From a phage, in NCBI GenBank assembly GCA_026683435.1, contig GCA_026683435.1_4866.1: a DNA stretch of 64,000 bases. One strand, given 5' to 3'. Position 1 is the first letter of the stretch, and each line of letters starts with the position of its first letter. Shown here piece after piece: positions 1 to 18,220 of the stretch. A model generated the notes under the pieces. The model saw only the letters and a list, made by a program, of their open reading frames with translations, was not told the DNA's origin and did not search any database. The translations under genes and the position numbers were made by a program.

Positions 1-1443
1 GATATAGATTAAGAAGTAACGGATGTAGTATTTTTCAGGACGACACACCGCGATGTAATAACGGCCTTCGGGTTCTTTAATACGGTTGATTTCCGTACGA
101 GACGGAATATCAATACCACGCGTCAAAATAACCGAGACAGGTCGTTTACCCATCGGAAAGTCAATCTTTAACGTTATTGACTTATCGACGCTACGGTAGT
201 ATTCCTTAACAGGCTTACCTTTGTCATCGAACAACAAGTCAGTAATATCATTTAAGACATAACCCTTTTCCTGATGCAGAACATCACGCAACGTTGTAGC
301 GAGTTCGTCACGAATATCCAGCGCACGGTACGACAATAAGGGCGGGCGAAGCATTCTGGAGATGGCCAGGTCTTCAAAGAACCAGACATTGGAATCTTCT
401 CCACTGAAATGCATCTTGTCTGCCGGTAATCCATCACCTGCCACGTCAACGAACTTCTTACGTTTAACGAACTCATTGTTAACAACACCGATTGGATCAT
501 ACTGCCGCATCTTCGGTGTATCTTTCCATGCCAGGGCGGCGTGGTTGTTTACAATCGTGTAGATGTTATCCCACGGTTGTTTAGTGAACATTACGGAAAA
601 GTGTGCATCAGGAATCATTTTCCCAATAAACACCAAGTCGTCCTTGTTCTTTGCATGGTTGCCACCAAACATGTAATAGAAAGTTTCATCTTTCACTTTT
701 ACAGTAGGATGGTCCTCGTTCACCAACGGATAGCAATATTTAACCGTACAAATCGGCGGATATGCCGCAAGGTTCATCCCAGCGGCGATGGGCTCGGGTT
801 CCGCGGATGCAGGCAACTCATCCTTCGACCAGTACGGCTGATATGGAACGCCGTCGTTGGTCGCTGTGATGGCTGAACCTTTTCTAGCCAATTCGTCCGC
901 CCGGTCGTTACCGTAGTGGCCGGAGTGTCCTTTGATTTTGATAACCTTAACACCCCGTCCTTCTTTTTTCATCTGCTGTTTGATTTCCCAGATACGAACA
1001 ATAAGTTCTTTGTTCGCCAGCGGAGTACCGTCAGCACGAACCCAACCGCGTTTATGCCAGCCGTCTATCCACTCGTTAAAAGTGTTTACAACGTAACTGG
1101 CATCCACGTAGATGATATAGTTCTTCGCGCGGAAGGGCGCGTTCTCAAACAACGTGATGAAGGCGATTAACTCGCCCACATCTGAGTAGAACTCTTTCGG
1201 AACGGGAATAACGGCGTCGACAAATTGAACGGTGTCCGGCAACTCCGGACACTTCACATCCTGCGGCACTTTTTTGTATCCAACAGTGGTAATCCGTTCT
1301 GAAACACCCGGATGGCTATAAGCCTGACTGTCTTCCAAATCTCCGTTGTTGAATAAATAACCATGAATACCAGCCCCCGAACCTTTCGGGGACTCAGTAT
1401 GACTACCATCGGTATAAATAACCGCTACGTCGACGTCTTTCAT
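1..1443 (-). CDS. RNase HI-like domain protein with long C-terminal extension (partial, continues past window start)
   Basis: Own translation of minus strand from ATG at 1441-1443: MKDVDVAVIYTDGSHTESPKGSGAGIHGYLF..., then ...KIKGHSGHYGNDRADELARKG about 150 aa in; fits RNase HI catalytic signature (DGS near N-terminus, HSGHxxNDxAD). No stop before position 1, so it is missing from the ORF track. Start overlaps stop of upstream gene (TAATG). Confidence 0.6.
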   Translation of the reverse strand, partial: MKDVDVAVIYTDGSHTESPKGSGAGIHGYLFNNGDLEDSQAYSHPGVSERITTVGYKKVPQDVKCPELPDTVQFVDAVIPVPKEFYSDVGELIAFITLFENAPFRAKNYIIYVDASYVVNTFNEWIDGWHKRGWVRADGTPLANKELIVRIWEIKQQMKKEGRGVKVIKIKGHSGHYGNDRADELARKGSAITATNDGVPYQPYWSKDELPASAEPEPIAAGMNLAAYPPICTVKYCYPLVNEDHPTVKVKDETFYYMFGGNHAKNKDDLVFIGKMIPDAHFSVMFTKQPWDNIYTIVNNHAALAWKDTPKMRQYDPIGVVNNEFVKRKKFVDVAGDGLPADKMHFSGEDSNVWFFEDLAISRMLRPPLLSYRALDIRDELATTLRDVLHQEKGYVLNDITDLLFDDKGKPVKEYYRSVDKSITLKIDFPMGKRPVSVILTRGIDIPSRTEINRIKEPEGRYYIAVCRPEKYYIRYFLIYI

Positions 1444-2162
1444 TATTCTCCTCGCAACTGCGGTGGAATGTATTCACCTGTGCACATTTCGCGGTGGGCT
1501 TCTAACATGCGTTCGAAGCCGTACGTACGCGCAACCAGGGCCAAATGATAGATGCGTGCCGTAGAATACGCTTCCTTCGCAGCATCAAAGCTAGCGTTAT
1601 GCTCGTACGCTTCTTTGCCACGGGTCCAGTGGTGCGCTTCTGCGTGCCAGTTCGGTTCCAGACCAAACGCATATGCAATACGTTCTGCAGTCCGGTCAGA
1701 GTCCAATATAGAAAACTTGCGGTACTTGCCCGGCGGGATATCGCACTGCGCGAACGCGTTCATCAGAATTGGAGCATCGAAATCGGGACCGCGCATGGTG
1801 ATAACCATTTTCACGTTGCCCAGATCATCCAACCATTTTTTAGCCGCCCACAGTGCTTCTGGCAGTGGAGTGGTCCCAGAAAACGCTTCAATGCGTGCTT
1901 TCTCGCTCGGTGCGTATTCGGGGTCGCCTTTACCTTCCCAATAACCGACCGTTTGTGGATCGATGTAGAAGATTTCTTTTGCTTTTGCATCGTTGGGGTC
2001 GATTTTGTGGTAACATGAACCGATCATTTTCATTGTCGGAACATCGAATGCCACGTTTGCCAACGTTAAGATGTAGGCATCTGGACGTAAAGCCAGGGTC
2101 TCTAAGTCCGTCCCAACAACAACGGTGGGCGTTAAAACAGGCAGAATTTTAGGATAGGTCAT
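1443..2162 (-). CDS. DEDDh-type 3'-5' exonuclease (DnaQ/DexA-like)
   Basis: 239-aa ORF; motifs VVGTDLETLA (Exo I D-x-E), GPDFDAPILMNAF (Exo II), HNASFDAAKEAY (Exo III H-x4-D); SD GGAGAG upstream of ATG at 2160-2162. Confidence 0.55.
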   Translation of the reverse strand: MTYPKILPVLTPTVVVGTDLETLALRPDAYILTLANVAFDVPTMKMIGSCYHKIDPNDAKAKEIFYIDPQTVGYWEGKGDPEYAPSEKARIEAFSGTTPLPEALWAAKKWLDDLGNVKMVITMRGPDFDAPILMNAFAQCDIPPGKYRKFSILDSDRTAERIAYAFGLEPNWHAEAHHWTRGKEAYEHNASFDAAKEAYSTARIYHLALVARTYGFERMLEAHREMCTGEYIPPQLRGE

Positions 2163-2250
2163 TTCAACTCTCCACGAGATTATATATCACACTATTGACT
2201 ATTAACGTAAAAAAGGAAATCCCCTCTTACCCGAAGGTAAGAGGGAGTTT

Positions 2251-2730
2251 TCATTGCACAAGGCAACTACTTTTGTGCCGTTCGTAGGCACGATTAAAAG
2301 ACTCTCTGTCTTCGCGATAGCTGCGAATGAGAGACTTAATCTGTCGTGACAAATCACGACTAATGTCTTGAGGGCTACGAGAACCAGGGTCGAGATATAT
2401 CCCGGAGGGTATACCATGAAGAGTGGGGCGAATAAACTCTTCACAAAGCGGTGCGGTCATCGGGGTGTGCCACCCTTTAGCTTCTGCATAGTTGTTTACT
2501 GACTTAGCGTACAGATAAACGTAATAAGCATAAGCGTTCACATCCGCAACAAACATTTTCCCTGCCAGCTTTTTCGCCTCAGGACTGTTCCCACCGTTAT
2601 ATACTGGTGGGTGTTCTAAAGGACGAAAAGGCCAATCTCCGGTTGAGGAGTAATCTGGGTCTACGTGACGGATGACCCCAGGGCATCCTGTCAACAATAG
2701 CACCAGTATCGCCACCAAAAATAACTTCAT
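2251..2730 (-). CDS. lipoprotein (possible o-spanin)
   Basis: N-terminus MKLFLVAILVLLLTGC has signal peptide and lipobox LLTGC; lies 9 nt downstream of a membrane-anchored protein gene on the same strand. Confidence 0.5.
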   Translation of the reverse strand: MKLFLVAILVLLLTGCPGVIRHVDPDYSSTGDWPFRPLEHPPVYNGGNSPEAKKLAGKMFVADVNAYAYYVYLYAKSVNNYAEAKGWHTPMTAPLCEEFIRPTLHGIPSGIYLDPGSRSPQDISRDLSRQIKSLIRSYREDRESFNRAYERHKSSCLVQ

Positions 2731-2739
2731 GTATGCTCC

Positions 2740-3249
2740 TCATGGATTATTAAGCGTACTGATAATCTCCTGTCGGAAATCGTTTGCCGCCTGCGACCCC
2801 ACTGGGCGAGAAGCTGCCTGGTGTTTCTTGGCAGGCGGGCTAGACGGATTTAACGGTGCCTGTGGTGTTACCGGCTTGAGTTCTTCAGGCGGAACCGCGG
2901 CCCCAGTGCCTGTCCCTGTTGGAGATTTGGTACCATCATATGGCGATCGAGAACCCAGGCATGTGAAGAGACGATCGTACAGCTTATTGTTCTCCACTTC
3001 GCCATGATCGGACTTCTCTTTTAGCTCCTTATAGGATATCTCCAGATACTGAGTACGCGATTGGACGCTAACCAGTGTGTGGTATTGAACAATGTAGGCA
3101 TATGAGACAAATGCAGAGAACGCGATCAGTGCCACTATCACTAGTGTCACTATTTTCCCGGCTCGTGTTACTTTCTCCCCCTCGCCCGGTTTAAATGCTT
3201 CCCACAGAATCTGTAAGAATGGAAGCAGTTTGAAAACTGATGCTATCAT
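2740..3249 (-). CDS. membrane-anchored protein with Pro-rich C-terminus (possible i-spanin)
   Basis: ORF track 2740..3255 begins at GTG; first ATG at 3247-3249. Hydrophobic helix IVTLVIVALIAFSAFVSYAYIV, charged helical segment, then Pro/Ser-rich tail; immediately followed by the lipoprotein gene. Confidence 0.4.
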   Translation of the reverse strand: MIASVFKLLPFLQILWEAFKPGEGEKVTRAGKIVTLVIVALIAFSAFVSYAYIVQYHTLVSVQSRTQYLEISYKELKEKSDHGEVENNKLYDRLFTCLGSRSPYDGTKSPTGTGTGAAVPPEELKPVTPQAPLNPSSPPAKKHQAASRPVGSQAANDFRQEIISTLNNP

Positions 3250-3273
3250 GCTCACCTCGGAGAGTTTTTAATT

Positions 3274-4653
3274 ATGTATGATTTACAAGGCTTTATTCAA
3301 ATAGCGGCTCTGATTGATAATGGCCCTGGCAACACCGCTCCGGTAGGTGAGTTGTCTGAGCTGTCATATTCGTTCGCTAAAAGCAAGCAGTATTTTACTA
3401 AAGAAAATCTGCAGGTGGAACTGGTTGCTTTTACTTCTAAACGTGACGAGTTGCCTATTAAGACCCCGGCCGTCTTTAGCGACCACGTTCTTACTGTTTC
3501 CCAATGGATCTACCAACAGTCTATCCTGGGCAACTTAAGAAACGACGAAGTTGAATTCCAGCGTTTGCTGTTGGGGCAATTTAATAGTGTCATCAGCGGT
3601 GTTCAGTCTGGCGCGATGATTCAGACTAACAGTAACTGGTTCCCACGTTGGGTCAGTTGGAAACTTGAAACCACAGCAGATAAAGTCGAAGACCCGTCTG
3701 ATGTAAATAACCAGATTATTCTCTGGTTTGCTGATGAAGATTTCAATCAGGACTATACTGGATTTGAAATTGAAGTCCAAATGCCGATATTACCGGTTGA
3801 TACTTTCTTGGCTGTGAAATCTGTAGTCGAAAAGGCAATGGAAGGGTTCAACCTTCCGGATCACCATAATAAGATTAACGAATTAGCTGACGGTTATCCG
3901 TACACTAGCCTGATTACTAACATCTATACTTGGCACGACCAGGAAGACTTTGACTCCACCTTACCGATACCGATGTCGGCTATCATCTACGGACGCGCGG
4001 GTCGTAACCCGAGCAGGATTAAACAAGCGTTACGTGATTACATTTTGGCAAACTCCAGTTTTACTGTGGCGTTGGGTGTCAAAGTGTTCCCAGAAATCTT
4101 TACGACCACCAAGTTCACAATTGTTCCCGGTTGGTCAATTCGTGGGATTCCAAATGAGGAAGATGTTGCGGCATTATACTCGCCGATTCTCCCATATGAT
4201 TTCTGGGTCAAAGCAATCTCCCGATTTGGGGAGTGGACTGTTCAAACCATTACGGAAAAAAATAGTGGAGCGATCTCGATTCCAACTACCGATGTAACGG
4301 ATTTACCGTCCATCTATAAATCGTTGAACGCCGTGGTTATCGCTGGCCCTGAAAACGATTCACGCAAAACGACCCTGCATGACACAATTCCTGACTACGC
4401 ATTAATCGGCACTAATAATGCGGATATTGCGAGAATGTCGAAGAAAACCACCGAGTGGTTGGATCTGTTCTTCCAGGCGTTAATTGCAGCCGAAGAGTAC
4501 CATCCGCACTCCACCCCGTTGGATATCGTGAAGCTCGTAGACGACGTTGATCCTAACGTTTACTTCTACGTCTTCGAATTCGATAACGTGGAATATCGTG
4601 TCTTGGCCCGTAAGGCCATTTGGGATGTTCCTGCGGTAGAGCCAAAAGCCTAA
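3274..4653 (+). CDS. hypothetical protein (459 aa)
   Basis: Long ORF with ATG start, 18 nt divergent from the neighbouring minus-strand gene; no motif recognised. Confidence 0.6.
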   Translation: MYDLQGFIQIAALIDNGPGNTAPVGELSELSYSFAKSKQYFTKENLQVELVAFTSKRDELPIKTPAVFSDHVLTVSQWIYQQSILGNLRNDEVEFQRLLLGQFNSVISGVQSGAMIQTNSNWFPRWVSWKLETTADKVEDPSDVNNQIILWFADEDFNQDYTGFEIEVQMPILPVDTFLAVKSVVEKAMEGFNLPDHHNKINELADGYPYTSLITNIYTWHDQEDFDSTLPIPMSAIIYGRAGRNPSRIKQALRDYILANSSFTVALGVKVFPEIFTTTKFTIVPGWSIRGIPNEEDVAALYSPILPYDFWVKAISRFGEWTVQTITEKNSGAISIPTTDVTDLPSIYKSLNAVVIAGPENDSRKTTLHDTIPDYALIGTNNADIARMSKKTTEWLDLFFQALIAAEEYHPHSTPLDIVKLVDDVDPNVYFYVFEFDNVEYRVLARKAIWDVPAVEPKA

Positions 4654-4663
4654 GGAGGGTTAA

Positions 4664-5287
4664 ATGGCACAACTGTTGCCTAACACGCCTCAGGTTAACC
4701 TTGAGGGGTTGTTCAAGGTTAAGACACCTTATACGTTGCCAGATAAAGTGATTTACCGTGTTGACGCGGTACAGAACTTTCCGAAACTCCAACGTAATAA
4801 TATTGACGTTTATAACAAGTATTATAAACCTGTCGGCCTAACTCGTGACGACTATATCAGCGACGCTAATGTCGAAGCCTCGATTGTAACATTAAAGTCG
4901 AGGGACGGTCAAGTCTACGAGTTGCCTGATACGTACATTGAGACGTATCCTGGACTGAACGGGTTAAATTATAGACGCAATGTGGTGGTTATTGACCTGG
5001 CATTAATACCCGAATACGTCGATGTCACACTGCTAACGAACGACCTGAAAAGCATCTTAGAACGCGGTTTAGGAATCGAAGCACGTGTGGACATCACATC
5101 GATGGATTACGAAGGGACGGTGACGGAAGAAGAACACTTGCAAATGGAAGCGGTGCGTAAAGCCAAAATCCGTGAGCAGGTTCCTCTGACAGAACAAGTT
5201 GCAACACTCACTAAGCAGAATCAAGAACTGCAGGCGTTGAATGATGCGATGTTGAAAATCCTGAAAGATAACGGGTTAACAAATTAA
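4664..5287 (+). CDS. hypothetical protein (207 aa), coiled-coil C-terminus
   Basis: ORF 10 nt after previous gene; C-terminal heptad-like LTEQVATLTKQNQELQALNDAMLKILK; followed by a strong terminator. Confidence 0.6.
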   Translation: MAQLLPNTPQVNLEGLFKVKTPYTLPDKVIYRVDAVQNFPKLQRNNIDVYNKYYKPVGLTRDDYISDANVEASIVTLKSRDGQVYELPDTYIETYPGLNGLNYRRNVVVIDLALIPEYVDVTLLTNDLKSILERGLGIEARVDITSMDYEGTVTEEEHLQMEAVRKAKIREQVPLTEQVATLTKQNQELQALNDAMLKILKDNGLTN

Positions 5288-5302
5288 AGAAAAAAAAAGA
5301 AC

Positions 5303-5340
5303 TACCTACTCCCTTGGGAGTAGGTAGGCTTTTATTTTTA
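5303..5340. terminator. bidirectional rho-independent terminator
   Basis: Stem CTACCTACTCCC / GGGAGTAGGTAG flanked by an A-tract upstream and TTTTATTTTT downstream, between convergent genes 4664..5287 (+) and 5346..6503 (-). Confidence 0.7.
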
Positions 5341-5345
5341 TCGCA

Positions 5346-6503
5346 TTATTTACCGATGATATCACGGACCATTGCTTTGATTGTGGCAACAGTACGTTTC
5401 TTTTTCGGCAGCTTGCGGATTTCTGCGTACAGTTTATCCAGGTTCAGCGTTTTCTGTACCTGCGCAACAATCTGCATTTGCTCTTCGTCGATCTTCACTT
5501 CGACGGTTTGTTCCTGCATTTTGCCCAGTTCCTGAATCACACTGGAAACCGATACCGGATAAGCTGTTGATTTTGGACGTTCGATACCGAGGGTAACAAA
5601 GATTTCGTCGTCAATAAACACATTTTCGATATCAACCAAGTTTTCCAGAATGATTTCATCGTGGTCTTCATCTTCCGACGCATTCGGGTATGGACGTTTG
5701 TAGGTGTAATCCCACACGTCATAACCGAGTTTATCTGCGAGTTGTACGAAACCTTCCCAGGTTACTTCGCCGGGGTTGATAGTCTGACCACGGAAACCGG
5801 GGTTGGCCGTAAAGACTTTCACCCAGTCGATGTTCGCGATGTTACGACACTCTTCCAGCGGCGCGTAACGATCTCCCACTTCGTCATTGTCAGTCTCTTC
5901 AACATGCTCTGCTTCACAACGCTCGAAAGTAACTGAGTGTGGTTTACCGTCACCGAAGATAACGGAGGCAGCACGCCAGTCTTCGATAGTCCACTGGACA
6001 TGAGTCAATTCAATGTAACAATGCCCAACCTTAACACGACCATGTGGAGCACTTACTGGTTTAATCAGCTCACCTGGTTCGAAGAAGAATTCGTCAGAAT
6101 GTGCAATGGCATACCAGACACCATCAACACCTTCAACGAGAATAGACCAGTTATAAGGCGCGTGGCAATTTTGGAAAGCTACGCCCAGCATACTTCCCCA
6201 ACGGTCATCTGGCGAATATTTCAGTGGCGGCAGGTTATCAAACTGAAGAGTTTGAGAAGAAAGGCACAACTTATTACGCAGGTGCGGCAGCGGCAGATAA
6301 GCCTCCACATTGTTATCGACCAGCGCATTGTAAAGATCCGGGTTGATAACACCGGTGCCAGTGACGTGTTGTGCAATCAGAGCTTCTGAATATGCACGAA
6401 TACCTTCGTAGCTAAGCACATACGCACGGTCACGTACTACACGAGCCATATCTTCGATTACGGAAATTGGAAATTTCATGTTAATAGTCCTTATAAAAGT
6501 CAA
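5346..6503 (-). CDS. hypothetical protein (385 aa)
   Basis: Long ORF; no recognisable motif. Confidence 0.55.
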   Translation of the reverse strand: MTFIRTINMKFPISVIEDMARVVRDRAYVLSYEGIRAYSEALIAQHVTGTGVINPDLYNALVDNNVEAYLPLPHLRNKLCLSSQTLQFDNLPPLKYSPDDRWGSMLGVAFQNCHAPYNWSILVEGVDGVWYAIAHSDEFFFEPGELIKPVSAPHGRVKVGHCYIELTHVQWTIEDWRAASVIFGDGKPHSVTFERCEAEHVEETDNDEVGDRYAPLEECRNIANIDWVKVFTANPGFRGQTINPGEVTWEGFVQLADKLGYDVWDYTYKRPYPNASEDEDHDEIILENLVDIENVFIDDEIFVTLGIERPKSTAYPVSVSSVIQELGKMQEQTVEVKIDEEQMQIVAQVQKTLNLDKLYAEIRKLPKKKRTVATIKAMVRDIIGK

Positions 6504-6539
6504 TGGTATTTTCAGATGATTAGTTACTGCTGTAAAAAA

Positions 6540-6806
6540 CTAGTTACGGTCGGAATTAAAGACGTGCCAGGTACTACGCCAGCGGAAGAATCGGGTTATG
6601 AAACCACGTATGTGGTAGCCTGAGAACAACATCCAGATCGTGAGAAAAAGCTGCGCCCATGGAGTGGTGAGTTCCATCAAATGCGCGACTATCGCACCAA
6701 CTATCAACATTACCGTGGAGAATAACAAACTATACATCATCGGAATGTTGTGGCTATAGCGTTTCTCCATCCAGTAGAGAAAATTTATTAAACGTTTCAC
6801 GAACAC
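6540..6806 (-). CDS. small membrane protein (88 aa, two predicted TM helices)
   Basis: Hydrophobic stretches SLLFSTVMLIVGAIVAHL and LFLTIWMLFSGYHI. Confidence 0.45.
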   Translation of the reverse strand: MFVKRLINFLYWMEKRYSHNIPMMYSLLFSTVMLIVGAIVAHLMELTTPWAQLFLTIWMLFSGYHIRGFITRFFRWRSTWHVFNSDRN

Positions 6807-6814
6807 ACATCCAA

Positions 6815-6852
6815 GAATTAAATAAAAGGTGGTCAGACCCGAAGGTCTGACC
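6815..6852 (-). terminator. rho-independent terminator
   Basis: Stem GGTCAGACC / GGTCTGACC with loop CGAA; on minus strand followed by ACCTTTTATTTAATT; sits after stop of 6858..7451. Confidence 0.6.
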
Positions 6853-6857
6853 GTTAA

Positions 6858-7451
6858 TTACGCATCGGCCTCAAAGAACGGCTGGTTTGGTACCACTGCG
6901 TATTCGAGCACGAACAGATGTTCTGGGGCATCTTCTGCTCGCCACAGTTTGTGGCACGTTGCCAGTTTTTCCAGGATGGTCAACCAGCTGAGCTGGCAGA
7001 AAGCACGGTCGCCGAAGAACAGTTTCTGCAGTGCAATCGACACATCCATATACGCCTGTTTGAAGTCGAGTTCTTTATCGTAACCCGCCGACTGTCGCCA
7101 CGTCAGCACGAAACCTGCTTCGGTTTCGTTAATTGCTGGACGTAAACCACAAATCCACATCAGTGCCAGATTAACGTTCCAGTCGAATTCGATACCTTCG
7201 TCTTCGTCATCACCAAACGCCGCGTTTAACGCATCGTAGAAACCGTGGTTCTCTGCGAACCATTCGCCGTACTCAACGTAGACCGGTGCTTCGACAGCTT
7301 CCCCATCGACTTCACCGATAGGACGCTCTACATAGTTCGGGTTGGTTTGAACGTGTTCCGCACCCGCGCGAATTAATTCGTAGACATCTTTGGCGGTGAT
7401 TTGTGCGGCTGTTTTAAGACCTGGATACCAGGGGCGTGTTACGAGTGTCAA
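6858..7451 (-). CDS. hypothetical protein (197 aa)
   Basis: ORF; acidic protein, no motif recognised. Confidence 0.5.
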   Translation of the reverse strand: MTLVTRPWYPGLKTAAQITAKDVYELIRAGAEHVQTNPNYVERPIGEVDGEAVEAPVYVEYGEWFAENHGFYDALNAAFGDDEDEGIEFDWNVNLALMWICGLRPAINETEAGFVLTWRQSAGYDKELDFKQAYMDVSIALQKLFFGDRAFCQLSWLTILEKLATCHKLWRAEDAPEHLFVLEYAVVPNQPFFEADA

Positions 7452-8170
7452 AGCAATGCTCCTTTCATGATAGTGTTATTTGCCAGTAGTGTACCGGCCG
7501 CAGGTGATATTTTGGTGTACAGCGTATCCCAGATTTTCTGAAGCTCAGCGACGCGTTGGTCGCGGTCTTCCTTCGCAAAAGCAAGCTGACGTGTTTCAGC
7601 TTTCGGTGGCGTCATTTTCGCACCGTAGAATGCTGCGTCTTTTCGGTAGCTGTCCATCCAGCGTTTCCCGACCGATGATTTCTTTTTAATCATCGCAACA
7701 GCAGCGCTCTCACCGAAGCGGTAGCCTAATGCAATTTCGGCTGTGCTCGGCTTGCGTTTGAGTTGTTTTGTCAGATGATCCTCGATGTGTTTCATGTAAA
7801 CAGCAGCAAGCTGTACAGCATATTTCGGTTTATTAAGGTCTGCGTTCTTTGGGATGTTAAGTTGTTTCCCATACAGACGTATCATGGAGCGTTTAGTACC
7901 TGTCGTCATTTGGACAACACTACTAGCACTGCTCGATTTATTCTTACCCACGTTTTTATTAAAACGGGATTCGCGGTAAATGGTGGTCGCAAGCATCCCG
8001 GCATGTACACCTTGCTTTTGAGATGCAGAGACGATGAGAGGTTTAATCTCATTGAACTGGTCCTGGATAAGGACAAATTCTTTTTGATGTTTGTTACTGG
8101 TGGACTGGTAAGAAGCGTTGCTGTTGAATGTGGTCACTGCTACCAGAAGAAATAAAATGGTGCGAAACAT
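7448..8170 (-). CDS. secreted protein, possibly lytic transglycosylase (SLT)-like
   Basis: N-terminal signal peptide MFRTILFLLVAVTTFNSNA; segment YRESRFNKNV...SASSVVQMTTGT loosely resembles the SLT ES...S..GA.GLMQ motif. Confidence 0.35.
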   Translation of the reverse strand: MFRTILFLLVAVTTFNSNASYQSTSNKHQKEFVLIQDQFNEIKPLIVSASQKQGVHAGMLATTIYRESRFNKNVGKNKSSSASSVVQMTTGTKRSMIRLYGKQLNIPKNADLNKPKYAVQLAAVYMKHIEDHLTKQLKRKPSTAEIALGYRFGESAAVAMIKKKSSVGKRWMDSYRKDAAFYGAKMTPPKAETRQLAFAKEDRDQRVAELQKIWDTLYTKISPAAGTLLANNTIMKGALL

Positions 8171-8269
8171 GGATGTATCTCCAAACGGATTTATACTTTT
8201 CCGTTCCCAATCCGGGAAGACGGCGCGGACGGCATTGTGCTCCTTTGTAATGTGCCCTGATGATAATAT

Positions 8270-8770
8270 CTATTTGAAACTTTTTGGGATGATTTTCTCT
8301 GCTTCCCTCAGCAGGGTGTCTGGTAAATAGAATCGATAAGTCTGCTCCGTGTGCTGTAGTCGTTTCTGTAAGTGTATAAAGATTTCCAATCGCTCATGGT
8401 AACGTAACCAGCCGTTAGCCATCCCTAGGGGCGGTATCGCAATCCCTCCTTCTAAGTCTTCCCCTAGTCGCGCCAGCGCATCAATGCCGGACGTGACATA
8501 GTAAATCTGCGATTTATAGCGAAAATGGGTTTTAGTAGGAAGGAGTATTACCCCTTCCTCAGGATAACAATAGACCTCACCAATAACGATTTGCTCTTTA
8601 CGGCATTTCTGGCGATAGTCATTATAAAGCGATGGGAAGCGTTCTCGGCACGCCAAAGCAATGCCCCTTCCCATTGCACCAACACAGTTAACTGTAACGA
8701 CCTTGAAGCGCTCAGGCGCGTTAAACAGGTCGTGGGAGATAATAGCCTCGTCGATCAGTTCTAGTGGCAT
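8270..8770 (-). CDS. macrodomain protein (TARG1/DarG-like ADP-ribose hydrolase fold)
   Basis: VVTVNCVGAMGRGIALACRERFP and IAIPPLGMANGWL align by eye with the TARG1/OARD1 and DarG macrodomain core (C-x-D-C-RMGAGIA...F and P-R-IGCGL); size 166 aa fits a single macrodomain. Confidence 0.55.
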   Translation of the reverse strand: MPLELIDEAIISHDLFNAPERFKVVTVNCVGAMGRGIALACRERFPSLYNDYRQKCRKEQIVIGEVYCYPEEGVILLPTKTHFRYKSQIYYVTSGIDALARLGEDLEGGIAIPPLGMANGWLRYHERLEIFIHLQKRLQHTEQTYRFYLPDTLLREAEKIIPKSFK

Positions 8771-8969
8771 CTATTGCCATACCCCATTGTGAAATAACCG
8801 GAGACTGAAGCAACGATTCCAGCTCAGTAAGAACTCTGGCTTTTGCTTCTTCGCGCAACTTACGGACTTCCGGATCGGGTTTACCTGCGCCTAAATATTG
8901 GGGTTCTGTTTGTGGGGTAGGGAAACCACAGAAAGAACTAACCATTATTCCGATGATTGTTTTTTGCAT

Positions 8970-9392
8970 TTAGCTATTCCTTCTCACCCAGGTTTGTACC
9001 GCTGACTCGAAACCTTCGTGTTCGATACCGAGTCGTTTCATTGCCAACATAGTGTTGAGGCTATTCGTAATTTCTTCACGGTAGCGATGGTCGTCCATCT
9101 TACGCCAACACTTCTCCGGGTCAACACCTAAGCGTTGGAGTAGATACGCCTCACGCACCATACCAGGCCGCCAGAATTTAGGGCGGGTAATCGCGATTTC
9201 AATCATGGGTGTCATGTCCAACGTGTGCGCGAGAATACTAACCGGCGTTTCCCCAACTTTATCACGTAACGCTAAACGTAACCACCACTGAACGTTTGCT
9301 TTGGTTTCAGGTAACAGATCGTAGAATAAGGCTGTTTCTTCTTCTGATAAATGATCGTATAGTGATTTTGTTTCGCGAATAGCGGTAACCAT
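8970..9392 (-). CDS. hypothetical protein (140 aa)
   Basis: ORF only. Confidence 0.45.
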   Translation of the reverse strand: MVTAIRETKSLYDHLSEEETALFYDLLPETKANVQWWLRLALRDKVGETPVSILAHTLDMTPMIEIAITRPKFWRPGMVREAYLLQRLGVDPEKCWRKMDDHRYREEITNSLNTMLAMKRLGIEHEGFESAVQTWVRRNS

Positions 9393-9410
9393 TTTAATGC
9401 TCCTTTAGAT

Positions 9411-9929
9411 TTAATCAATCTCGCGTTTAGGGCTCCTGTGAAACTTCACTTCAGGATTATCCTTAAATGTTTCCCAGATAAGGGACGCACCACCAAGCTC
9501 TTTGGTTTTCGTGGTGCGCAGGTGTGAGTCGCCGAGCATAACAGCACAACGTCCTTTTGCCATATACTTTTTAATTTTTTCAACCATTTTAGCTTCACGA
9601 ATATAAAAAGAACGGCTAAAGTTTACAGCCATTCCCTTTTTATCCTTGATATCTTTAGCGTAGGTTGCGTCGCTCCAGTCATCGATCCCAATAGCAGGGA
9701 TGCCGAGTTTCTTAGCCAACTCCAGCCCCATGGGCCCAATAGAGTACATCTTCTCCTTTAATGCCTTATCTTGCGCTTTTGCAGTGTGATATTCATACGG
9801 CCCCAGTTCTTCACACAGTAAAAAATCGTATGGTTTTTTCCGATGGTTATCGATGATCGCCCATTCAACACGATTACGATCGGCCGTGGTATGAATTTCC
9901 CCATATATGTCAACACGAATGTCTGTCAT
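9411..9929 (-). CDS. hypothetical protein (172 aa)
   Basis: ORF; its start overlaps the stop of 9926..10135 (ATGA). Confidence 0.5.
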   Translation of the reverse strand: MTDIRVDIYGEIHTTADRNRVEWAIIDNHRKKPYDFLLCEELGPYEYHTAKAQDKALKEKMYSIGPMGLELAKKLGIPAIGIDDWSDATYAKDIKDKKGMAVNFSRSFYIREAKMVEKIKKYMAKGRCAVMLGDSHLRTTKTKELGGASLIWETFKDNPEVKFHRSPKREID

Positions 9930-10135
9930 TTTAATTCCTCAAAAACTATAGACGCCGGCAGCGTACCAAGCGCTGCTTTAATACACGTACTCAGCGGAGT
10001 ATCATCGAACGCAACACGACCGATAGTACCCACGTTGATGTGTTTTGGATTTACGGGTAAGAACTCCTTCGCCCGTTCGTACTCAGCCCAACAGACATCG
10101 GTGTTTAAAGCTGAAAACCCAGGACGGTGAAACAT
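9926..10135 (-). CDS. hypothetical small protein (~69 aa)
   Basis: ORF track 9926..10171; internal ATG at 10133-10135 has SD GAGGGG about 9 nt upstream, whereas the first ATG has none. Confidence 0.4.
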   Translation of the reverse strand: MFHRPGFSALNTDVCWAEYERAKEFLPVNPKHINVGTIGRVAFDDTPLSTCIKAALGTLPASIVFEELK

Positions 10136-10206
10136 AAATAGCACCCCTCGCGTAAAAAATACCCCACTCATAGTGAGGCATAATCGTAAGGAGTGCTAAA
10201 ACAGGA

Positions 10207-10695
10207 CTATGCTACCGCAGTCCTTAAAGGATCATCTGCTTCCGCAGGAACCTGCTTCGTAAATTCAAGCCATTGTCCGTCTGTAGAGACGGTCTTGTCA
10301 AAACCGCGAGCGGTAAAGAACGCAATACCAGCTTCCTGGCAAGCGTATATTCCCCCATGCGCACTGGTGAACTTTTCATTCACATCAAGCGCATCAAAAA
10401 TCTGCGTCATCGTTTTGCGACGGCGTGCCATTTCGGACACGAACATCGTACGAATCTTCAGAACCCCAGCGATTACGCGATAGAGACAGTAACCAACAGG
10501 GGTACCCCCTTCCAGAGCAACACAAGCACGGTTCCCCGCCAACAGTTTCTCCAGAGTGAGGTTCGGAATCTCACCTTTTTCGATATGGAGTATGGTACGT
10601 TGGTGGTTCAGAAATTTATAATGCAGCCCCAACAGCTGTTTATTTTGTGCTTCCGTTAAATCTGAAGATGAGGAAAGAATGACAATTTCGGCCAT
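10207..10695 (-). CDS. hypothetical protein (~163 aa)
   Basis: ORF track 10207..10722; likely start MAEIVILSS at 10693-10695. Confidence 0.45.
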   Translation of the reverse strand: MAEIVILSSSSDLTEAQNKQLLGLHYKFLNHQRTILHIEKGEIPNLTLEKLLAGNRACVALEGGTPVGYCLYRVIAGVLKIRTMFVSEMARRRKTMTQIFDALDVNEKFTSAHGGIYACQEAGIAFFTARGFDKTVSTDGQWLEFTKQVPAEADDPLRTAVA

Positions 10696-11348
10696 GAGCT
10701 GAATTCCTAAGTGAGCTTTCACCTGCGATGAAAGCGAGTAACGAAGAATTGCGTTTGTGTTTTCTTAAGTTTACCGGTAAACTTAAGCGGTGTATACCGC
10801 TGCAGGTAAAGACCAGTTCTCTATCGGAACCGTGTCTTTGATCAACAACGTCGTTGAAAACGCTGCGATGCTGAGGTAACCTTCCGTCGCCACATTCGCT
10901 CATGGCGCTTCTGATTACCACGCCAGTCTTCCCCGACTGTACGTGAAACTGCAAAATCATCCGGCCCGCAGACTTCCGCGATGTCTGCTAGAAGGTTCTT
11001 TGAAGACCCTATAGCCATCCCCGCGCTCGAAAGAACGATACGCCGGGTTGGCACGGCCGCCCCTGAACCCACGACCACGGGATCAGAGACTGTTTCACTG
11101 TTACATGATACTTCTCCCACTTCGTAATTACCCTCCTGTTAAAACCAACCTTGCGTCAATGCAAGGATTGCGCCTAGGGCGTATGCGCCTGCTCCTAGTA
11201 CCAGACTACAGATGATACACCCAACCCACTTCACTAAAATAACCATGATGCCAGAAATGCTCCGATTGCACAGATGATAATCGTAATGCCAAGGTCTGTC
11301 CAGGTGGCACCATCATACGCACCTGTTGCAATCATCGCCGCGTTGACA

Positions 11349-11552
11349 CTATTCACGACTGTCATAAGCCGGGTCCCTTAAACGCGGGGGCTTGCTCCAC
11401 AGATTACCGAAGTAAACCCCTTCTAAGAACACCAAAACAACTAAGCCCCAAAAGGCAGGCGTAGCGCGAGACATGAAAATACCGAGTAGCACCACAGTGT
11501 GCATTACCACAACTGCCCAAAACTTTAAACGACCAGGTTTACGTCTTGCCAT
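11349..11552 (-). CDS. small membrane protein
   Basis: Likely start MARRKPGRLKF, followed by hydrophobic WAVVVMHTVVLLGIFM and FWGLVVLVFLEGVYF. Confidence 0.35.
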   Translation of the reverse strand: MARRKPGRLKFWAVVVMHTVVLLGIFMSRATPAFWGLVVLVFLEGVYFGNLWSKPPRLRDPAYDSRE

Positions 11553-11639
11553 GGAATGCCCATCCTTTCGTGCGGATAATCCAACCCCAGGCACCACGAA
11601 TCAACCACAGTGCAATACCGGTTAATACGATACCTTCAA

Positions 11640-11831
11640 TCATGTCCGTTCTCCTATATCTCGCCACTCACAACGCGTGTCGAACAGACGTTCTTTAAGA
11701 GCAGCAGCTAAATAAACGACCGCAGCGATAACCACTACGGTTGCACAAAAGGAGAGGTACAGTACCATCACAACAAACTGAAGGAACTGAAAACCCCACC
11801 AAGCCCATAAGCGCCAACCGTTATGATGCAT
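11640..11831 (-). CDS. small membrane protein (63 aa)
   Basis: W-rich N-terminus then hydrophobic FVVMVLYLSFCATVVVIAAVVYLAAAL; its start overlaps the stop of the SbcC-like gene. Confidence 0.35.
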   Translation of the reverse strand: MHHNGWRLWAWWGFQFLQFVVMVLYLSFCATVVVIAAVVYLAAALKERLFDTRCEWRDIGERT

Positions 11832-14331
11832 ATTTGATTATTACCCCTTCGTTATAAACCGGTGGAAGCGTTACACCTTCTGGCTCCACGACACAGTAGG
11901 TGGCTTCGTTAAGTTTAGAATGAACTTCCGCTTCATGCGAAACGACCAGCAATTGAGAAAACTCTCCCGACAACGCCAACGATTTAATGAAGTTGACCAG
12001 TCGATTTTTGTGTTCTTCATCCATGCCTTCAGAGGGTTCATCCAATAACAAAGGATAGTTTTGTAAACCAAGCGCTTTATACGCTGTTAAACGAAACATC
12101 ATGTTAAAGATAATACGCTGTGCCTTCGAACCTTTCTTCACATCCGGCACCAGTTCTTCATGGTCTTTTAATCGCACCGGGAAAGTATAATCCAAATCCC
12201 CGTCGGTTAGATCGCATGGAATAACCTGCATCGGATATGCCCATACCGTTTCGATATACCGATTCATTAAATCCATGATGCGGGTAATCGCAGCATAAAA
12301 GTAACGACGCAATAATCCCTTTTCGGGTGAGACGGCATTGATAATCAATCTGGCATGATGGTGTTCTTTGAGCAACTCAGCTTGCTCTTTTTCCAATTCC
12401 GCTAAACGTGCAATAGCCCCTTCCATTTGACGAAACCGTTCACGAGCGGAAGTGTACGCATCGAGCTTCGCTTCGCGTCGGTTTAACAACTCGCGAACCA
12501 CGACGTTGTTAACGGAGATGTTCATTTCCGATACCAGATGTTCGTAGCCTTTTTGGAAACGTTCGATTGCTTCTTTGGTTTGTTGCAGTTGGGTGGTTTC
12601 GCGTTCCAGCACATTGGCTTGTCTGCGGTATTCTATCAGTCGACGGTTAGCCCCGTCCAGTTGTGAACGGATATGTTCAATTTTCTGGCTCAGCGCACCA
12701 TCAACGTTACCTACTGCGGCAACAGCCTCTTGCCATTCCCGTTCCGCTGTTGCAAGCTTCTCCGATTGACGCAGATACATCATGGCCGAATCTAGCTCTT
12801 CAGTAAAGGCACGTGCAATGGCACCGTAACGATCCCGCGCCATGGTGAAGATATCCAGCTCCTGCAGTTTACGGAAAAACAAACCGACAACGGGATGGTT
12901 GGAATACGACATGACGATTTCGCGAATCGTACGTAAGCTACGGACGTCCTCTTCAATCTCTTTGCGGTCACGCAAAAGACTATCCATTTCGTCTTTCAGC
13001 TGCTTCTTCCAACCTTCATTATCGTTGATGGCCTTTTCAATTTCAGGTAACGACTTACGAATCCCAGGACGGAAACGGTGGTTACACTGTGGACAATCAA
13101 CTTCTGCAGTTTCTAAGAAGTGTTGACGGTCGTGGTATAAACCGTGTAGCACATTCTCACAACGTTGCAGCTTTTCAGATAGACCCGCAGAGGTTAAATC
13201 CATACCCTGTAAACGCTTCTCTAACGCTCCCAGGCGCTCTGTTGTCTTTAACTGGTCCAGATGCATGGACAACGGTAAATTCCAGTTACAGGCATCGTTT
13301 AACGCGTTCTGAATGCTATCCACATCGATGCGGGTGCCTTCAAACAGAGCCGGGAACATCCAGTTCTGTTGGAACGTTGCCAGTTCCTGTTTTAAGCTGT
13401 CGATTGTTTGTTTTAGACCGGTATGGTTGCGCATCAGATATGCTTGACGCGACTCCTCATCCAGTAGCTGTGACAACTCTTTATTGTACATGTTGCATTC
13501 AGTTTCAGCAGAGGCCGCTTGCTCACGCCAGGCAACCACACGACTTTGAAACTCGTTAATCAGTTCGTCAGAAGGCAGAACGCCATAACGTTCCATAATG
13601 AGTTTTACAGCCGGTTGCAACGAGGCAATGCGTTTCCGGATACTATCAACCGAAACGGCGTTATCTAAACCGGGTCTCGCTTCAATGGTGCGGTTTAGTT
13701 CCTGAAGCTCAACGTCCAGTTCTTTCAAACGAACTTCTAAACGTGCACGATCTTCTTCATCGTCCACCACGCGCATTTTTGCCTCACCGATTTTACGGCC
13801 GGTGTGCTCAATGGCCCCACTTAAACTGGAAGCGAGTTTACGCAGACGACGATAACAACCAACGACGTACGTCAGATCAGATTCTGACATTAACGTAAAC
13901 CATTTACGACGAACTTCAGTGGTAGCGTCTGTTAATAAGGTTTCACCGTTAATTAACTCTTTGATTTCTTTGGTGATCCCGGTTAACTGTTCCACCATGG
14001 AGTTGTAAACTTTGGCGTTTACCGAGTCTACGACGGAGACACCTTTAGTGATGTTGAAGATACTACAAGACAGAGAAGAGCCACGACGCAGGACTTCAAA
14101 CTTAAGACGGTCGTCCCCAACTAACGCGTAGTTAGTGTAGGAACCACCTTCACGGAATTCTGATTTTGCTGGAGCTAAGGGGAGAAAAACAGATAGGAGG
14201 CTTGTTTTACCGCAGCCGTTGCCACCGAGGATGATGGTAACGGTTGACTTAAGGGTGAAATCAAACGTTTCGATTTCATGTAACCCCATGCCGGTAAATC
14301 CTTTCAAAATGATACGTTCGACCTTGAGCAT
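11821..14331 (-). CDS. SbcC/Rad50-like recombination ATPase
   Basis: N-terminal Walker A GGNGCGKTS; long central coiled-coil with CPQC zinc hook near its middle; C-terminal Walker B LLLDEPSEG and H-loop VVSHEA. Confidence 0.75.
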   Translation of the reverse strand: MLKVERIILKGFTGMGLHEIETFDFTLKSTVTIILGGNGCGKTSLLSVFLPLAPAKSEFREGGSYTNYALVGDDRLKFEVLRRGSSLSCSIFNITKGVSVVDSVNAKVYNSMVEQLTGITKEIKELINGETLLTDATTEVRRKWFTLMSESDLTYVVGCYRRLRKLASSLSGAIEHTGRKIGEAKMRVVDDEEDRARLEVRLKELDVELQELNRTIEARPGLDNAVSVDSIRKRIASLQPAVKLIMERYGVLPSDELINEFQSRVVAWREQAASAETECNMYNKELSQLLDEESRQAYLMRNHTGLKQTIDSLKQELATFQQNWMFPALFEGTRIDVDSIQNALNDACNWNLPLSMHLDQLKTTERLGALEKRLQGMDLTSAGLSEKLQRCENVLHGLYHDRQHFLETAEVDCPQCNHRFRPGIRKSLPEIEKAINDNEGWKKQLKDEMDSLLRDRKEIEEDVRSLRTIREIVMSYSNHPVVGLFFRKLQELDIFTMARDRYGAIARAFTEELDSAMMYLRQSEKLATAEREWQEAVAAVGNVDGALSQKIEHIRSQLDGANRRLIEYRRQANVLERETTQLQQTKEAIERFQKGYEHLVSEMNISVNNVVVRELLNRREAKLDAYTSARERFRQMEGAIARLAELEKEQAELLKEHHHARLIINAVSPEKGLLRRYFYAAITRIMDLMNRYIETVWAYPMQVIPCDLTDGDLDYTFPVRLKDHEELVPDVKKGSKAQRIIFNMMFRLTAYKALGLQNYPLLLDEPSEGMDEEHKNRLVNFIKSLALSGEFSQLLVVSHEAEVHSKLNEATYCVVEPEGVTLPPVYNEGVIIKYAS

Positions 14332-14379
14332 GTTTGCCTTCTAATGAGAAAGTATTAGTCGTTCATATCCAAAAGGTCA

Positions 14380-14416
14380 TGCGTAAAAAAGAAGAAATGG
14401 AACCCCGAAGGGTTCC
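14380..14416 (-). terminator. rho-independent terminator
   Basis: Stem GGAACCC / GGGTTCC with loop CGAA; minus strand continues ATTTCTTCTTTTTTAC. Confidence 0.6.
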
Positions 14417-14427
14417 AGAGAGGAGAG

Positions 14428-15054
14428 TTATTGCGGAATAAACTTACGGTGTCCGAGTGATTCCCAAAAACTATCGGTGCGCTCTTTGGTTAATTCATAC
14501 CACGCCCGCCCGGCATCAGAATCGACAACCTTTAACGTTTCAGTAAGCAGGAATTTGAACAGTTCGGCACTACGACCGGGTGCCACGCCGTCGAGATATA
14601 TCGGGATTAAATAACCGGTTTTGATTTCTTCGTACGCTTGCGATTGGTGCTGGCCAACAACCCAGGCATCAGCAGCGCTACCGACCAAAGTGGTGTTTAC
14701 AGTCAACTCATCAGAAATCCAGTTAACTGTATCAGCCATTATTGAATCGCCATTGACGTAGAAGAAAACCAAACGCTTAGGTTGCTCCACCGAACCAGCC
14801 AAATCTAATGCGGTGGTTCCGGTAAAGATCGTATTGTTAGGGTTACGTTCTGCAATAGGTAGAGCAAACCACGCTTCTAGCTGTTCCCAGCTACGCGGCA
14901 GTGCTTCTTTAAACCACTTCACCAATCGCGGGTATTCCAGAAACCCTTCTACCTCTTCTTCCATCAGATTGATACGCAGTTTGGTATCCCGACGATTCGC
15001 TTTCTGACACGTCACCATGTCGTCGATGAAACGAATCAGGGTAATCTCGTTCAT
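14428..15054 (-). CDS. hypothetical protein (208 aa)
   Basis: ORF flanked by terminators; no phosphoesterase (Mre11/SbcD) motifs seen. Confidence 0.5.
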   Translation of the reverse strand: MNEITLIRFIDDMVTCQKANRRDTKLRINLMEEEVEGFLEYPRLVKWFKEALPRSWEQLEAWFALPIAERNPNNTIFTGTTALDLAGSVEQPKRLVFFYVNGDSIMADTVNWISDELTVNTTLVGSAADAWVVGQHQSQAYEEIKTGYLIPIYLDGVAPGRSAELFKFLLTETLKVVDSDAGRAWYELTKERTDSFWESLGHRKFIPQ

Positions 15055-15065
15055 GTTTAATCCTT

Positions 15066-15100
15066 CTTCAACAAAAAAAGAAGGTAGCCCGTAGGCTACC
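15066..15100 (-). terminator. rho-independent terminator
   Basis: Stem AGGTAGCC / GGCTACCT with loop CGTA; minus strand followed by TCTTTTTTTGTTG. Confidence 0.65.
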
Positions 15101-15108
15101 TCTCGTAT

Positions 15109-15609
15109 TTACAGCCCCATATGCATAAGGGAAATGATTGGGACCTTATGGCCACGAATCATTGCATACGGTTCGTACATTTGTGCGTTGGTTTCGAATA
15201 ACTCACAGGCCGGAATACGGTCACCGGTAGAGAGTTGTAAGACCTCAATTTGGTCGCCCCAGAAGTTATTCACTAATACGTGGTCGACGGTGTTGTCTTC
15301 ACGACCTTCAGGGGTGCTACGATAGGTGGCTGCATCGTACCAACCTTTGCGGTATACTTCATATCCCGCGTGAAGCATCCGGTAGTACGGACGTAGCTGT
15401 GGGGCATTCAACGCAGCATCTAACCATTCGCTGTGGATGCTGTTAATCAGTACAGTTGCTTCTGCTGGCCAGTCGGTGCGATTGAGGGTTAACTCGCCTA
15501 ACAACTTCAACTTCCAACCAGTAGAAAGAATAGCACGGGTACGTTCAGGGTTAACGTTCATCTGAGTAAAGAAAGAAGAACGGGTATCGTCGAGAATGTT
15601 CATGTTCAT
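15109..15609 (-). CDS. hypothetical protein (~166 aa)
   Basis: ORF track 15109..15675; ATG at 15607-15609 is preceded by SD TAAGGAT. Confidence 0.5.
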   Translation of the reverse strand: MNMNILDDTRSSFFTQMNVNPERTRAILSTGWKLKLLGELTLNRTDWPAEATVLINSIHSEWLDAALNAPQLRPYYRMLHAGYEVYRKGWYDAATYRSTPEGREDNTVDHVLVNNFWGDQIEVLQLSTGDRIPACELFETNAQMYEPYAMIRGHKVPIISLMHMGL

Positions 15610-15629
15610 TTGCTTAATCCTTACGGGTA

Positions 15630-15639
15630 ATAGTCGATT
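15630..15639 (-). promoter_or_regulatory. recurrent AATCGACTAT motif (1 of 3), candidate promoter element
   Basis: Minus-strand AATCGACTAT 21-30 nt upstream of ATG 15609; the same 10-mer recurs at 16578-16587 and 17459-17468. Confidence 0.25.
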
Positions 15640-15709
15640 AAAAAGGACCCTGCGGCTAAGTGTTGGGGAAATCACCGCAGGGCCAAAGTGAGATGGGTCG
15701 TCATCTCAC
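15636..15709 (-). terminator. tandem hairpins, probable terminator
   Basis: Inverted repeats GTGAGATG..CATCTCAC and GACCCTGCGG..CCGCAGGG downstream of stop at 15739; minus strand then TCCTTTTTAA. Confidence 0.4.
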
Positions 15710-15738
15710 GTTATAACATCTGTCTGAAAACTTTTCGG

Positions 15739-16122
15739 TTACTGGTCGAGCGCTATTGAACCACGCACTTCGCCTTGTTGTTCAATAACCAGGAGGCGCT
15801 GTTTGGTTTTCGTATTGTAAGCGAGCGACGCGCGAAGCGTCGGGTCGCACGTTATTGTCTCTACTGGCACAATCTCTTGTGCCTTTGAGTTCAACAGAAA
15901 GTAATAACCTGCCGGACAAGTTTCCTCGCCCTTTGCGTGGACTAGGATGTACTCGTCGTGCCGGCTGACTTCTTCACATCTACCATCGTCGCCAGTACAG
16001 ACTTCGAACGAAGGCGGGTTGTACTGATACGGTGTGCCTGGTAGTAAATCTTCTACGCTGGTTGTAGCTGAAGCAGAAGCGGTCAAGAACACCGCCGCGA
16101 TAATACCCATAAATCCACGCAT
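15739..16122 (-). CDS. secreted small protein (signal peptide, Cys-containing)
   Basis: N-terminus MRGFMGIIAAVFLTASASA; six Cys in the mature part. Confidence 0.5.
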   Translation of the reverse strand: MRGFMGIIAAVFLTASASATTSVEDLLPGTPYQYNPPSFEVCTGDDGRCEEVSRHDEYILVHAKGEETCPAGYYFLLNSKAQEIVPVETITCDPTLRASLAYNTKTKQRLLVIEQQGEVRGSIALDQ

Positions 16123-16135
16123 GTTGTTTCCTTAC

Positions 16136-16546
16136 TTAAAAGTCGAGTTTATTGATGCCCACGTTTTTCTTAATCGTAGGGTCGTACATGATAACCGTCA
16201 GGGCATTGTCGCCTGGGTCGCGAGTAAACTCGGCAACGGCTTCACCACTGCAGGCTTGGTTATCATTATAGTTCATGGATTCGGCTTGCCCGGTTGCCAT
16301 GTTAATGACCCCGTATTCAGGGTCGCCACATGCGACACCGCCCATCGTTTTCACTAACAGATAACGGTTGTTATCGGACATCGCAACGATCTGGCAGCTA
16401 CCGCCTTGTACGTCAGAGTTCTGGCACCAGAACTCTCCGCCGTATTCGTGATCGTTAACAACTTTTGGTAACTCGATACTTCCAGCACGAGCGAAGAAGC
16501 TAATGGCCAGAGTAGCAAGTAAAACTGGTAATAAAAAATGTTTCAT
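16136..16546 (-). CDS. secreted small protein (signal peptide, Cys-containing)
   Basis: N-terminus MKHFLLPVLLATLAISFFARA; SD GAGGTG upstream. Confidence 0.55.
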   Translation of the reverse strand: MKHFLLPVLLATLAISFFARAGSIELPKVVNDHEYGGEFWCQNSDVQGGSCQIVAMSDNNRYLLVKTMGGVACGDPEYGVINMATGQAESMNYNDNQACSGEAVAEFTRDPGDNALTVIMYDPTIKKNVGINKLDF

Positions 16547-16568
16547 AATAGCACCTCAATTTTTTGAG

Positions 16569-17448: not shown

Positions 17449-17458
17449 GTTTTACTCT

Positions 17459-17468
17459 ATAGTCGATT
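17459..17468 (-). promoter_or_regulatory. recurrent AATCGACTAT motif (3 of 3)
   Basis: Between terminator 17471-17502 and ATG 17448; minus strand reads CAATCGACTATAGAGTAAAACATG. Confidence 0.25.
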
Positions 17469-17470
17469 GG

Positions 17471-18215: not shown

Positions 18216-18220
18216 ATAAA

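Follow-up and report, generated by a model that had tools for sequence, protein, structure and literature searches.

A phage gene that encodes a lone macrodomain raises two questions: from which substrate, DNA or protein, would its product remove ADP-ribose, and does it serve the phage as a counter-defense factor? A sequence-only reading of the window (the whole 64,000-nucleotide stretch of phage DNA analyzed) had proposed such a gene as a TARG1/DarG-like macrodomain that reverses ADP-ribosylation. The open reading frame is real and lies on the minus strand, which that reading had not given (Table 1). The two strings by which the macrodomain core had been recognized are exact, NCVGAMGRGIALACRERFP corresponding to residues 28-46 of the product and IPPLGMANGWL to residues 112-122. 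The gene is indeed phage-encoded: window positions 6000-12000 match Escherichia phage vB_EcoM_EC001 at 99.0% identity across 100% of their length and Salmonella phage SPN3US at 97.6%, and each of these is a jumbo phage of ~240 kb. NCBI taxonomy places Seoulvirus, the genus of SPN3US, in the Chimalliviridae, the nucleus-forming phages, and judged by nucleotide identity the window belongs to an SPN3US-like nucleus-forming jumbo phage (Seoulvirus, Chimalliviridae). The SPN3US orthologue (ACQ60_gp070, YP_009153490.1), which is 98.2% identical to the 166-aa protein, is labeled 'macro domain-containing protein' in RefSeq, and the gene is present in a single copy in every one of the phage records.

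Table 1. Positions in the window of the macrodomain gene, its key codons and nearby open reading frames
Feature	Positions	Strand	Basis and correspondence
Macrodomain gene, complete ORF from ATG to stop, 166 aa	8270..8770	minus	ORF list and translation
Asn28 codon	8687..8689	minus	HMMER and MAFFT alignments; T. aquaticus DarG N22, PhiKZ AdfM N23
Lys80 codon, motif P78-T79-K80	8531..8533	minus	Alignments; T. aquaticus DarG catalytic Lys80, PhiKZ AdfM K78, TARG1 catalytic lysine
Codons of G116-M-A-N-G-W121, ADP-ribose-clamping loop	8408..8425	minus	Residue mapping; T. aquaticus DarG G117-A-G-N-G-G122
82-aa ORF	8721..8969	minus	
172-aa ORF, SPN3US gp073	9411..9929	minus	
GNAT acetyltransferase	10207..10722	minus	Pfam Acetyltransf_1, 21.1 bits against a cut-off of 20.7

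Taken alone, the generic Pfam Macro model (PF01661) gives a borderline call, as the protein scores 21.6 bits (E 2e-4) against a gathering cut-off of 22.0; a precomputed PF01661 match is present in several of its close homologues. The assignment was settled by DarG-specific models and by structure. The PADLOC DarG model matched with an E-value of 4e-32 and the NCBIfam model antitoxin_DarG with 9.7e-31, the PADLOC and NCBIfam matches covering model positions 6-147 of 329 or 7-150 of 338. Since the DarG models are matched over their macro half alone, and the NCBIfam score of 107.3 does not approach the equivalog cut-off of 250, the protein lacks the C-terminal DarT-binding domain. A phmmer search of the PDB returned the DarG macrodomains of Mycobacterium tuberculosis (5M3I, 2e-20) and Thermus aquaticus (5M31 and 5M3E, 8e-19) (Jankevicius et al. 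2016, PMC5179494). When a profile built from 59 homologues was compared with solved structures, the E-values were 4e-55 for M. tuberculosis DarG, 1.9e-51 for T. aquaticus DarG (TaqDarG), 2.5e-35 for Thermosipho DarTG, 7e-12 for TARG1 and ~1e-6 for alphavirus nsP3 macrodomains.

The predicted structure gives the same picture. An AlphaFold2 model made from the 59-sequence alignment (pLDDT 93.6, pTM 0.90) found 5M3E, TaqDarG with bound ADP-ribose, as its top PDB match in Foldseek (E 1.7e-13, target-normalized TM 0.83, rmsd 2.2 Å), with TARG1 behind it (E 1.3e-7, TM 0.77). Foldseek returned 186 PDB matches at E<=1e-3, and almost all of the best 50 of these 186 are macrodomains. Together, the sequence profiles and the structural model confirm, far beyond chance, that the 166-aa protein is a macrodomain. 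The profile search and structural comparison that had been put forward as checks thus led to no unrelated family, and the model, which matches DarG best, retains the catalytic residues and the ADP-ribose-binding loop.

A strong match to PHROG 335 (E 1.2e-29) introduces a different enzymatic activity, as this family is labeled 'phosphatase', as are several records of the gene. The protein would then be a housekeeping ADP-ribose-1''-phosphate phosphatase of the Poa1p/Appr-1-p type, clearing a side product that arises in phage RNA repair or tRNA ligation, a role akin to the processing of ADPr-phosphate that has been proposed for Macro domains in jumbo-phage RNA-repair systems (PMC7824862). This is very improbable: Poa1p is matched weakly and over ~55 N-terminal residues (about 5-59; E 0.05 with the single sequence, 3e-5 with the profile), whereas the DarG macro match is end to end, no KptA/Tpt1 or RNA ligase gene adjoins the macrodomain gene, and the phosphatase label is inherited from generic macrodomain nomenclature.

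The active site was mapped using printed alignments and the published list of TaqDarG contacts (PMC5179494). TaqDarG residues N8, L9, T20, N22, K29, V31, Q34, T79, K80, H82, W83, G117, G119, N120 and G121 correspond, in that order, to D14, L15, T26, N28, R35, I37, A40, T79, K80, H82, F83, G116, A118, N119 and G120 of the 166-aa protein. N28 and K80 do not vary among the 59 aligned sequences, the catalytic lysine is 99-100% conserved across all groups compared, and the ADP-ribose contacts T26, T79, G116, N119 and G120 are conserved. In TaqDarG, the K80A substitution abolishes activity and N22A ranks second in severity (PMC5179494); in the phage enzyme PhiKZ AdfM, considered below, N23A impairs DNA de-ADP-ribosylation (PMC13309987). 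The clamp loop shows more divergence. TaqDarG contacts ADP-ribose through G117, G119, N120 and G121 of this loop, and its G119E substitution is impaired (PMC5179494). Compared with GAGNGG in TaqDarG, the GMANGW loop has Ala at the G119 position and Trp121 in place of Gly, and the position of the DarG tryptophan proposed to stack on thymine (PMC5179494) is occupied by Phe. PhiKZ AdfM also has Ala at the G119 position and is active, so Ala is tolerated there.

These positions also separate the two enzymes named in the sequence-only reading. Human TARG1/OARD1 (4J5Q, 4J5R, 4J5S) belongs to the same macrodomain subclass and has its catalytic lysine at the same position, but it is ~16% identical in the structural alignment and acts on protein Glu-ADPr. 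Of its Lys84/Asp125 dyad, the lysine is kept (K80), whereas Asp125 is replaced by Gly120. TARG1 has Ser at the position of N28, Ala90 at that of F83 and Asp125 at that of G120, and because the 166-aa protein follows DarG at all three distinguishing positions it is DarG-type and not TARG1-type. The earlier description as TARG1/DarG-like is thereby narrowed to DarG2-type, on Asn28, the profile match and the loss of Asp125. That reading had also left open whether the substrate is DNA or protein; given a DarG-type protein, de-ADP-ribosylation of DNA is much likelier than that of protein.

There remains the reading of the protein as a TARG1-like protein or RNA mono-ADP-ribosylhydrolase, which would reverse marks made by host ADP-ribosyltransferases (ARTs; CmdT-type, for example) on phage or host proteins or mRNA rather than DNA. 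TARG1 is the next-best solved relative in both the profile and the Foldseek comparison and shares the catalytic lysine, an RNA-ADP-ribosylating defense, CmdTAC, exists (PMC11618068), and a shift in substrate is to some extent conceivable given the divergent loop and Phe83. We nonetheless hold this to be decidedly unlikely, as the similarity to DarG exceeds that to TARG1 by more than 40 orders of magnitude in E-value, Asp125 is lost, the DarG-specific Asn and an aromatic residue stand where TARG1 has Ser and Ala90, and DarG2-type macrodomains act exclusively on DNA ADP-ribosylation (PMC13309987). Macrodomains in general also bind free ADP-ribose derivatives, and TARG1/OARD1 deacetylates O-acetyl-ADPr, as the deposited name of 4J5R records. 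The protein could accordingly be pictured as binding or hydrolyzing immune signals or metabolites derived from ADP-ribose (O-acetyl-ADPr, or Thoeris signals of the gcADPR or His-ADPR type), blunting NAD-based defenses and not DarT. Such a role has little probability, since the protein bears no specific similarity to a known signal sponge or hydrolase, PADLOC matched DarG alone, and conservation is strict for the Lys/Asn pair that typifies cleavage of glycosidic bonds on DNA.

A DarG-type macrodomain acting on DNA thus remains the preferred assignment, and comparison with the antitoxin DarG (DarG2) of DarTG2 systems shows what the phage protein has kept. The two share the fold, 37-38% sequence identity, the catalytic N22/K80 pair and the ADP-ribose-contacting residues T20, T79, G117, N120 and G121 (TaqDarG numbering). 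Measured against the makeup of a DarG antitoxin, the N-terminal DarG-type macrodomain is present, while the C-terminal DarT-binding domain and an adjoining darT gene are absent: DarG is a protein of about 330-400 aa carrying that domain and encoded next to darT, in contrast to the phage-encoded protein of the window. Lacking the DarT-binding domain, the latter can only erase the modification and not sequester the toxin. Same-strand neighbors of the gene encode an SLT transglycosylase, a GNAT acetyltransferase and several proteins that belong to no Pfam family; Pfam annotation found no DarT or partner ADP-ribosyltransferase among them, and no ART is annotated within 20 kb on either side of the macrodomain gene in the PHROG-annotated relative SPLA5c. 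Consisting of the macrodomain only, present in single copy and without a nearby ART, the protein is therefore an orphan antitoxin-like enzyme.

Enzymes of this description have recently been characterized in nucleus-forming phages. Morgan et al. (Cell Rep 2026, PMC13309987) defined the anti-DarT factor macro, AdfM, a DarG2-like macrodomain carried by about half of chimalliviruses, and named as members PhiKZ gp104, PhiPA3 gp108, Goslar gp83 and Asesino gp217. In that study, PhiKZ AdfM stripped DarT2-made ADP-ribose from a TNTC oligonucleotide, rescued DarT2 toxicity, and was needed for normal phage growth on DarTG2 hosts; without AdfM, phage DNA became ADP-ribosylated and its replication and packaging were impaired. 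AdfM of Asesino, PhiKZ and PhiPA3 localized to the phage nucleus, into which the PhiKZ protein is imported (PMC13309987).

The 166-aa protein shows 68.7% identity to Asesino gp217 (YP_009290835.1) over all 166 residues, and seven genes follow in the same order at the two loci: acetyltransferase, gp213, gp214, macro, transglycosylase, gp219 and gp220. The identity and the collinear locus therefore make the window gene an orthologue of a named AdfM. In phiKZ, the tblastn match is PHIKZ104 (36% identity, E 2e-25). The PhiKZ gp104 locus and the window share no neighbors beyond the macrodomain gene, so orthology to the PhiKZ gene cannot be argued from context. Like the named AdfMs, the window protein is a stand-alone macrodomain (~160-166 aa) with the catalytic Asn and Lys, encoded by a chimallivirus without a DarT partner; it thus combines a DarG2-like domain, the conserved residues, a Chimalliviridae origin and homology to a named member. 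By sequence and model, the product is a stand-alone DarG2-type macrodomain of the AdfM type. The proposal that it is a candidate anti-DarTG factor gains support by analogy, through the 69%-identical, syntenic Asesino gp217 in the AdfM family. The enzymology and the anti-DarTG2 phenotype come from PhiKZ (PhiPA3 deletion mutants were also made), whereas for the Asesino/SPN3US subclade the published observation is the localization of Asesino gp217.

The strategy has a parallel in AdfN, a phage NADAR orphan antitoxin directed against DarTG1 (Johannesman et al. 2025, PMC11825919). In both cases the enzymatic domain of an antitoxin is encoded by a phage as an orphan, in AdfN to clean the phage's own DNA of ADP-ribose. 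AdfN has the NADAR fold and targets guanine-ADPr made by DarT1, as opposed to a macrodomain and thymine-ADPr made by DarT2.

By analogy with the PhiKZ enzyme, we propose, with a probability of roughly 0.8, that the window protein erases thymine-linked ADP-ribose from phage single-stranded DNA by Lys80/Asn28-dependent glycosidic cleavage, probably in the phage nucleus, and without sequestration of the toxin. In this model, infection of Enterobacteriaceae carrying DarTG2 would free DarT2, which would ADP-ribosylate thymidines in TNTC motifs of the single-stranded phage genome. The ADP-ribose moiety would be held in the macrodomain pocket by T26, N28, I37, T79 and the loop G116-W121. Asn28 would position the modified base and Lys80 would cleave the thymine-ribose bond, restoring unmodified DNA and allowing replication and packaging to proceed. 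The macrodomain would act as a pure eraser, and its import into the phage nucleus is probable by analogy with the Asesino orthologue. Targets for DarT2 are abundant: the window contains 1988 TNTC sites, counted on both strands, versus 1963 ± 37 expected from dinucleotide shuffles (z = +0.66). As TNTC is not depleted, motif avoidance is not the strategy of this phage.

To place the protein among its relatives, an exhaustive search of 1.84 billion representatives was used, which yielded 4240 relatives at E<=1e-3. A single representative showed at least 50% identity; the remainder are mostly DarG-like proteins of 300-450 aa with 35-45% identity. Many bacterial DarG-like proteins reach 105-118 bits against PhiKZ gp104, compared with 82 bits for the 166-aa protein, which ranks 149th of 221. 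In a neighbor-joining tree (141 columns, 100 bootstraps), whose deep nodes lack resolution, the 166-aa protein falls within a bootstrap-80 clade that comprises 23 stand-alone proteins, 158-177 aa long, and groups there with Asesino gp217 and two close homologues (bootstrap 93). PhiKZ gp104 lies outside the bootstrap-80 clade, among the long DarG-like proteins, and the 166-aa protein is not its sister in this tree.

The clade keeps its catalytic core at 98-100% and carries a loop signature of its own, GM[A/V]NGW (M117 95%, A/V118 98%, W121 100%), versus GCGNGG in the long DarG-like proteins (C 89%, G 90%, G 71%). Trp121 is unique to the stand-alone phage clade. Phe occupies position 83 in 51% of the clade, against Trp in 96% of the long DarG-like proteins. 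PhiKZ AdfM differs from the subclade of the window protein in the same respects, having GC[A/G]NGG and Trp rather than GM[A/V]NGW and often Phe83. These sequence differences admit another interpretation, in which the SPN3US/Asesino-type macrodomains would be a lineage captured or diverged apart from PhiKZ-type AdfM and not a simple functional copy of it, the loop and the Trp-to-Phe change reflecting a shifted specificity. We regard this as unlikely, and give a modest chance to altered specificity or to a separate capture from DarG. The enzymes might then serve against a different DarT2 subtype or in a different sequence context, act on some other base or nucleic acid that bears ADP-ribose, or be adapted to the phage nucleus.

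The idea of an anti-DarT macrodomain is not new, since it was published in 2026 (PMC13309987), and the gene itself counts as already known because its family has been named, its orthologue was included in that study and its domain is annotated by RefSeq. What the analysis adds is an annotated member of the family, not new biology: an E. coli/Salmonella jumbo phage carries an AdfM counter-defense gene. This bears on the prediction of host range on DarTG2-carrying Enterobacteriaceae and on SPN3US-group phages that are candidates for therapy. It also corrects annotation. Across near-identical phage records the gene product appears as 'hypothetical protein', 'phosphatase', 'protein-ADP-ribosylation protein', 'Appr-1-p processing protein' and 'macro domain-containing protein'. 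The first three labels are misleading, and 'protein-ADP-ribosylation protein' suggests the opposite activity.

Several observations were made on the surroundings of the gene. The 82-aa ORF, which has no Pfam family, lies directly upstream and shares 50 nt with the beginning of the macrodomain ORF. It is conserved and unannotated in Erwinia phage Asesino (positions 3811..4047 of the Asesino sequence L003; 42% identity, E 6e-13), where the counterpart overlaps the macrodomain gene to a comparable extent (~47 nt). This ORF is probably a genuine small gene, and its translation may be coupled to that of the macrodomain gene. The 172-aa ORF has a weak, sub-threshold DUF5694 match and is found in EC001, SPN3US and JN03. 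It is apparently absent from SPLA and SPFM relatives, in which two pieces cover 91% of the 6-kb query, and SPLA5c has no annotated CDS at its place; the pattern resembles an indel of an accessory gene, ~0.6 kb away from the macrodomain gene. The GNAT gene, ~1.5-2 kb upstream of the macrodomain gene, is kept in SPN3US, Asesino and an Enterobacter element described below, a constant linkage.

Several records of SPFM Salmonella phages gave fragmented matches to the macrodomain gene (40 pieces). Seven ORFs at the homologous position are truncated or odd (111-152 aa), sharing 13-16% of the query at 79-92% identity, which is consistent with frameshifting sequencing errors in the assemblies and not with real gene decay. 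Over the whole window (1..64000), TATC is strongly over-represented (627 versus 418 ± 18.5 in dinucleotide shuffles, z = +11), whereas TGTC and TCTC occur less often than expected (z = -5.7 and -2.8, respectively) and TNTC as a whole is neutral. This tetranucleotide bias could stem from codon usage, from a motif for methylation or restriction, or from promoter elements of the phage.

Jumbo-phage macrodomain genes also turn up in records filed under bacterial names. A search of plasmids for enterobacterial DarG-type genes returned mostly Bacillus, Zymomonas and Rhizobium, with two Escherichia records, and its top match was a jumbo phage filed as a plasmid. Several assemblies labeled Salmonella enterica (contigs of 79-243 kb) also carry the macrodomain protein. 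The Enterobacter ludwigii record NZ_CP134650.1 ('plasmid unnamed1', 222,441 bp, circular) holds a macrodomain copy with 62.8% identity, in the same gene order: a large SMC-like gene, GNAT acetyltransferase, macro and SLT transglycosylase. This record is almost certainly the genome of an SPN3US-like jumbo phage filed as a non-mobilizable plasmid.
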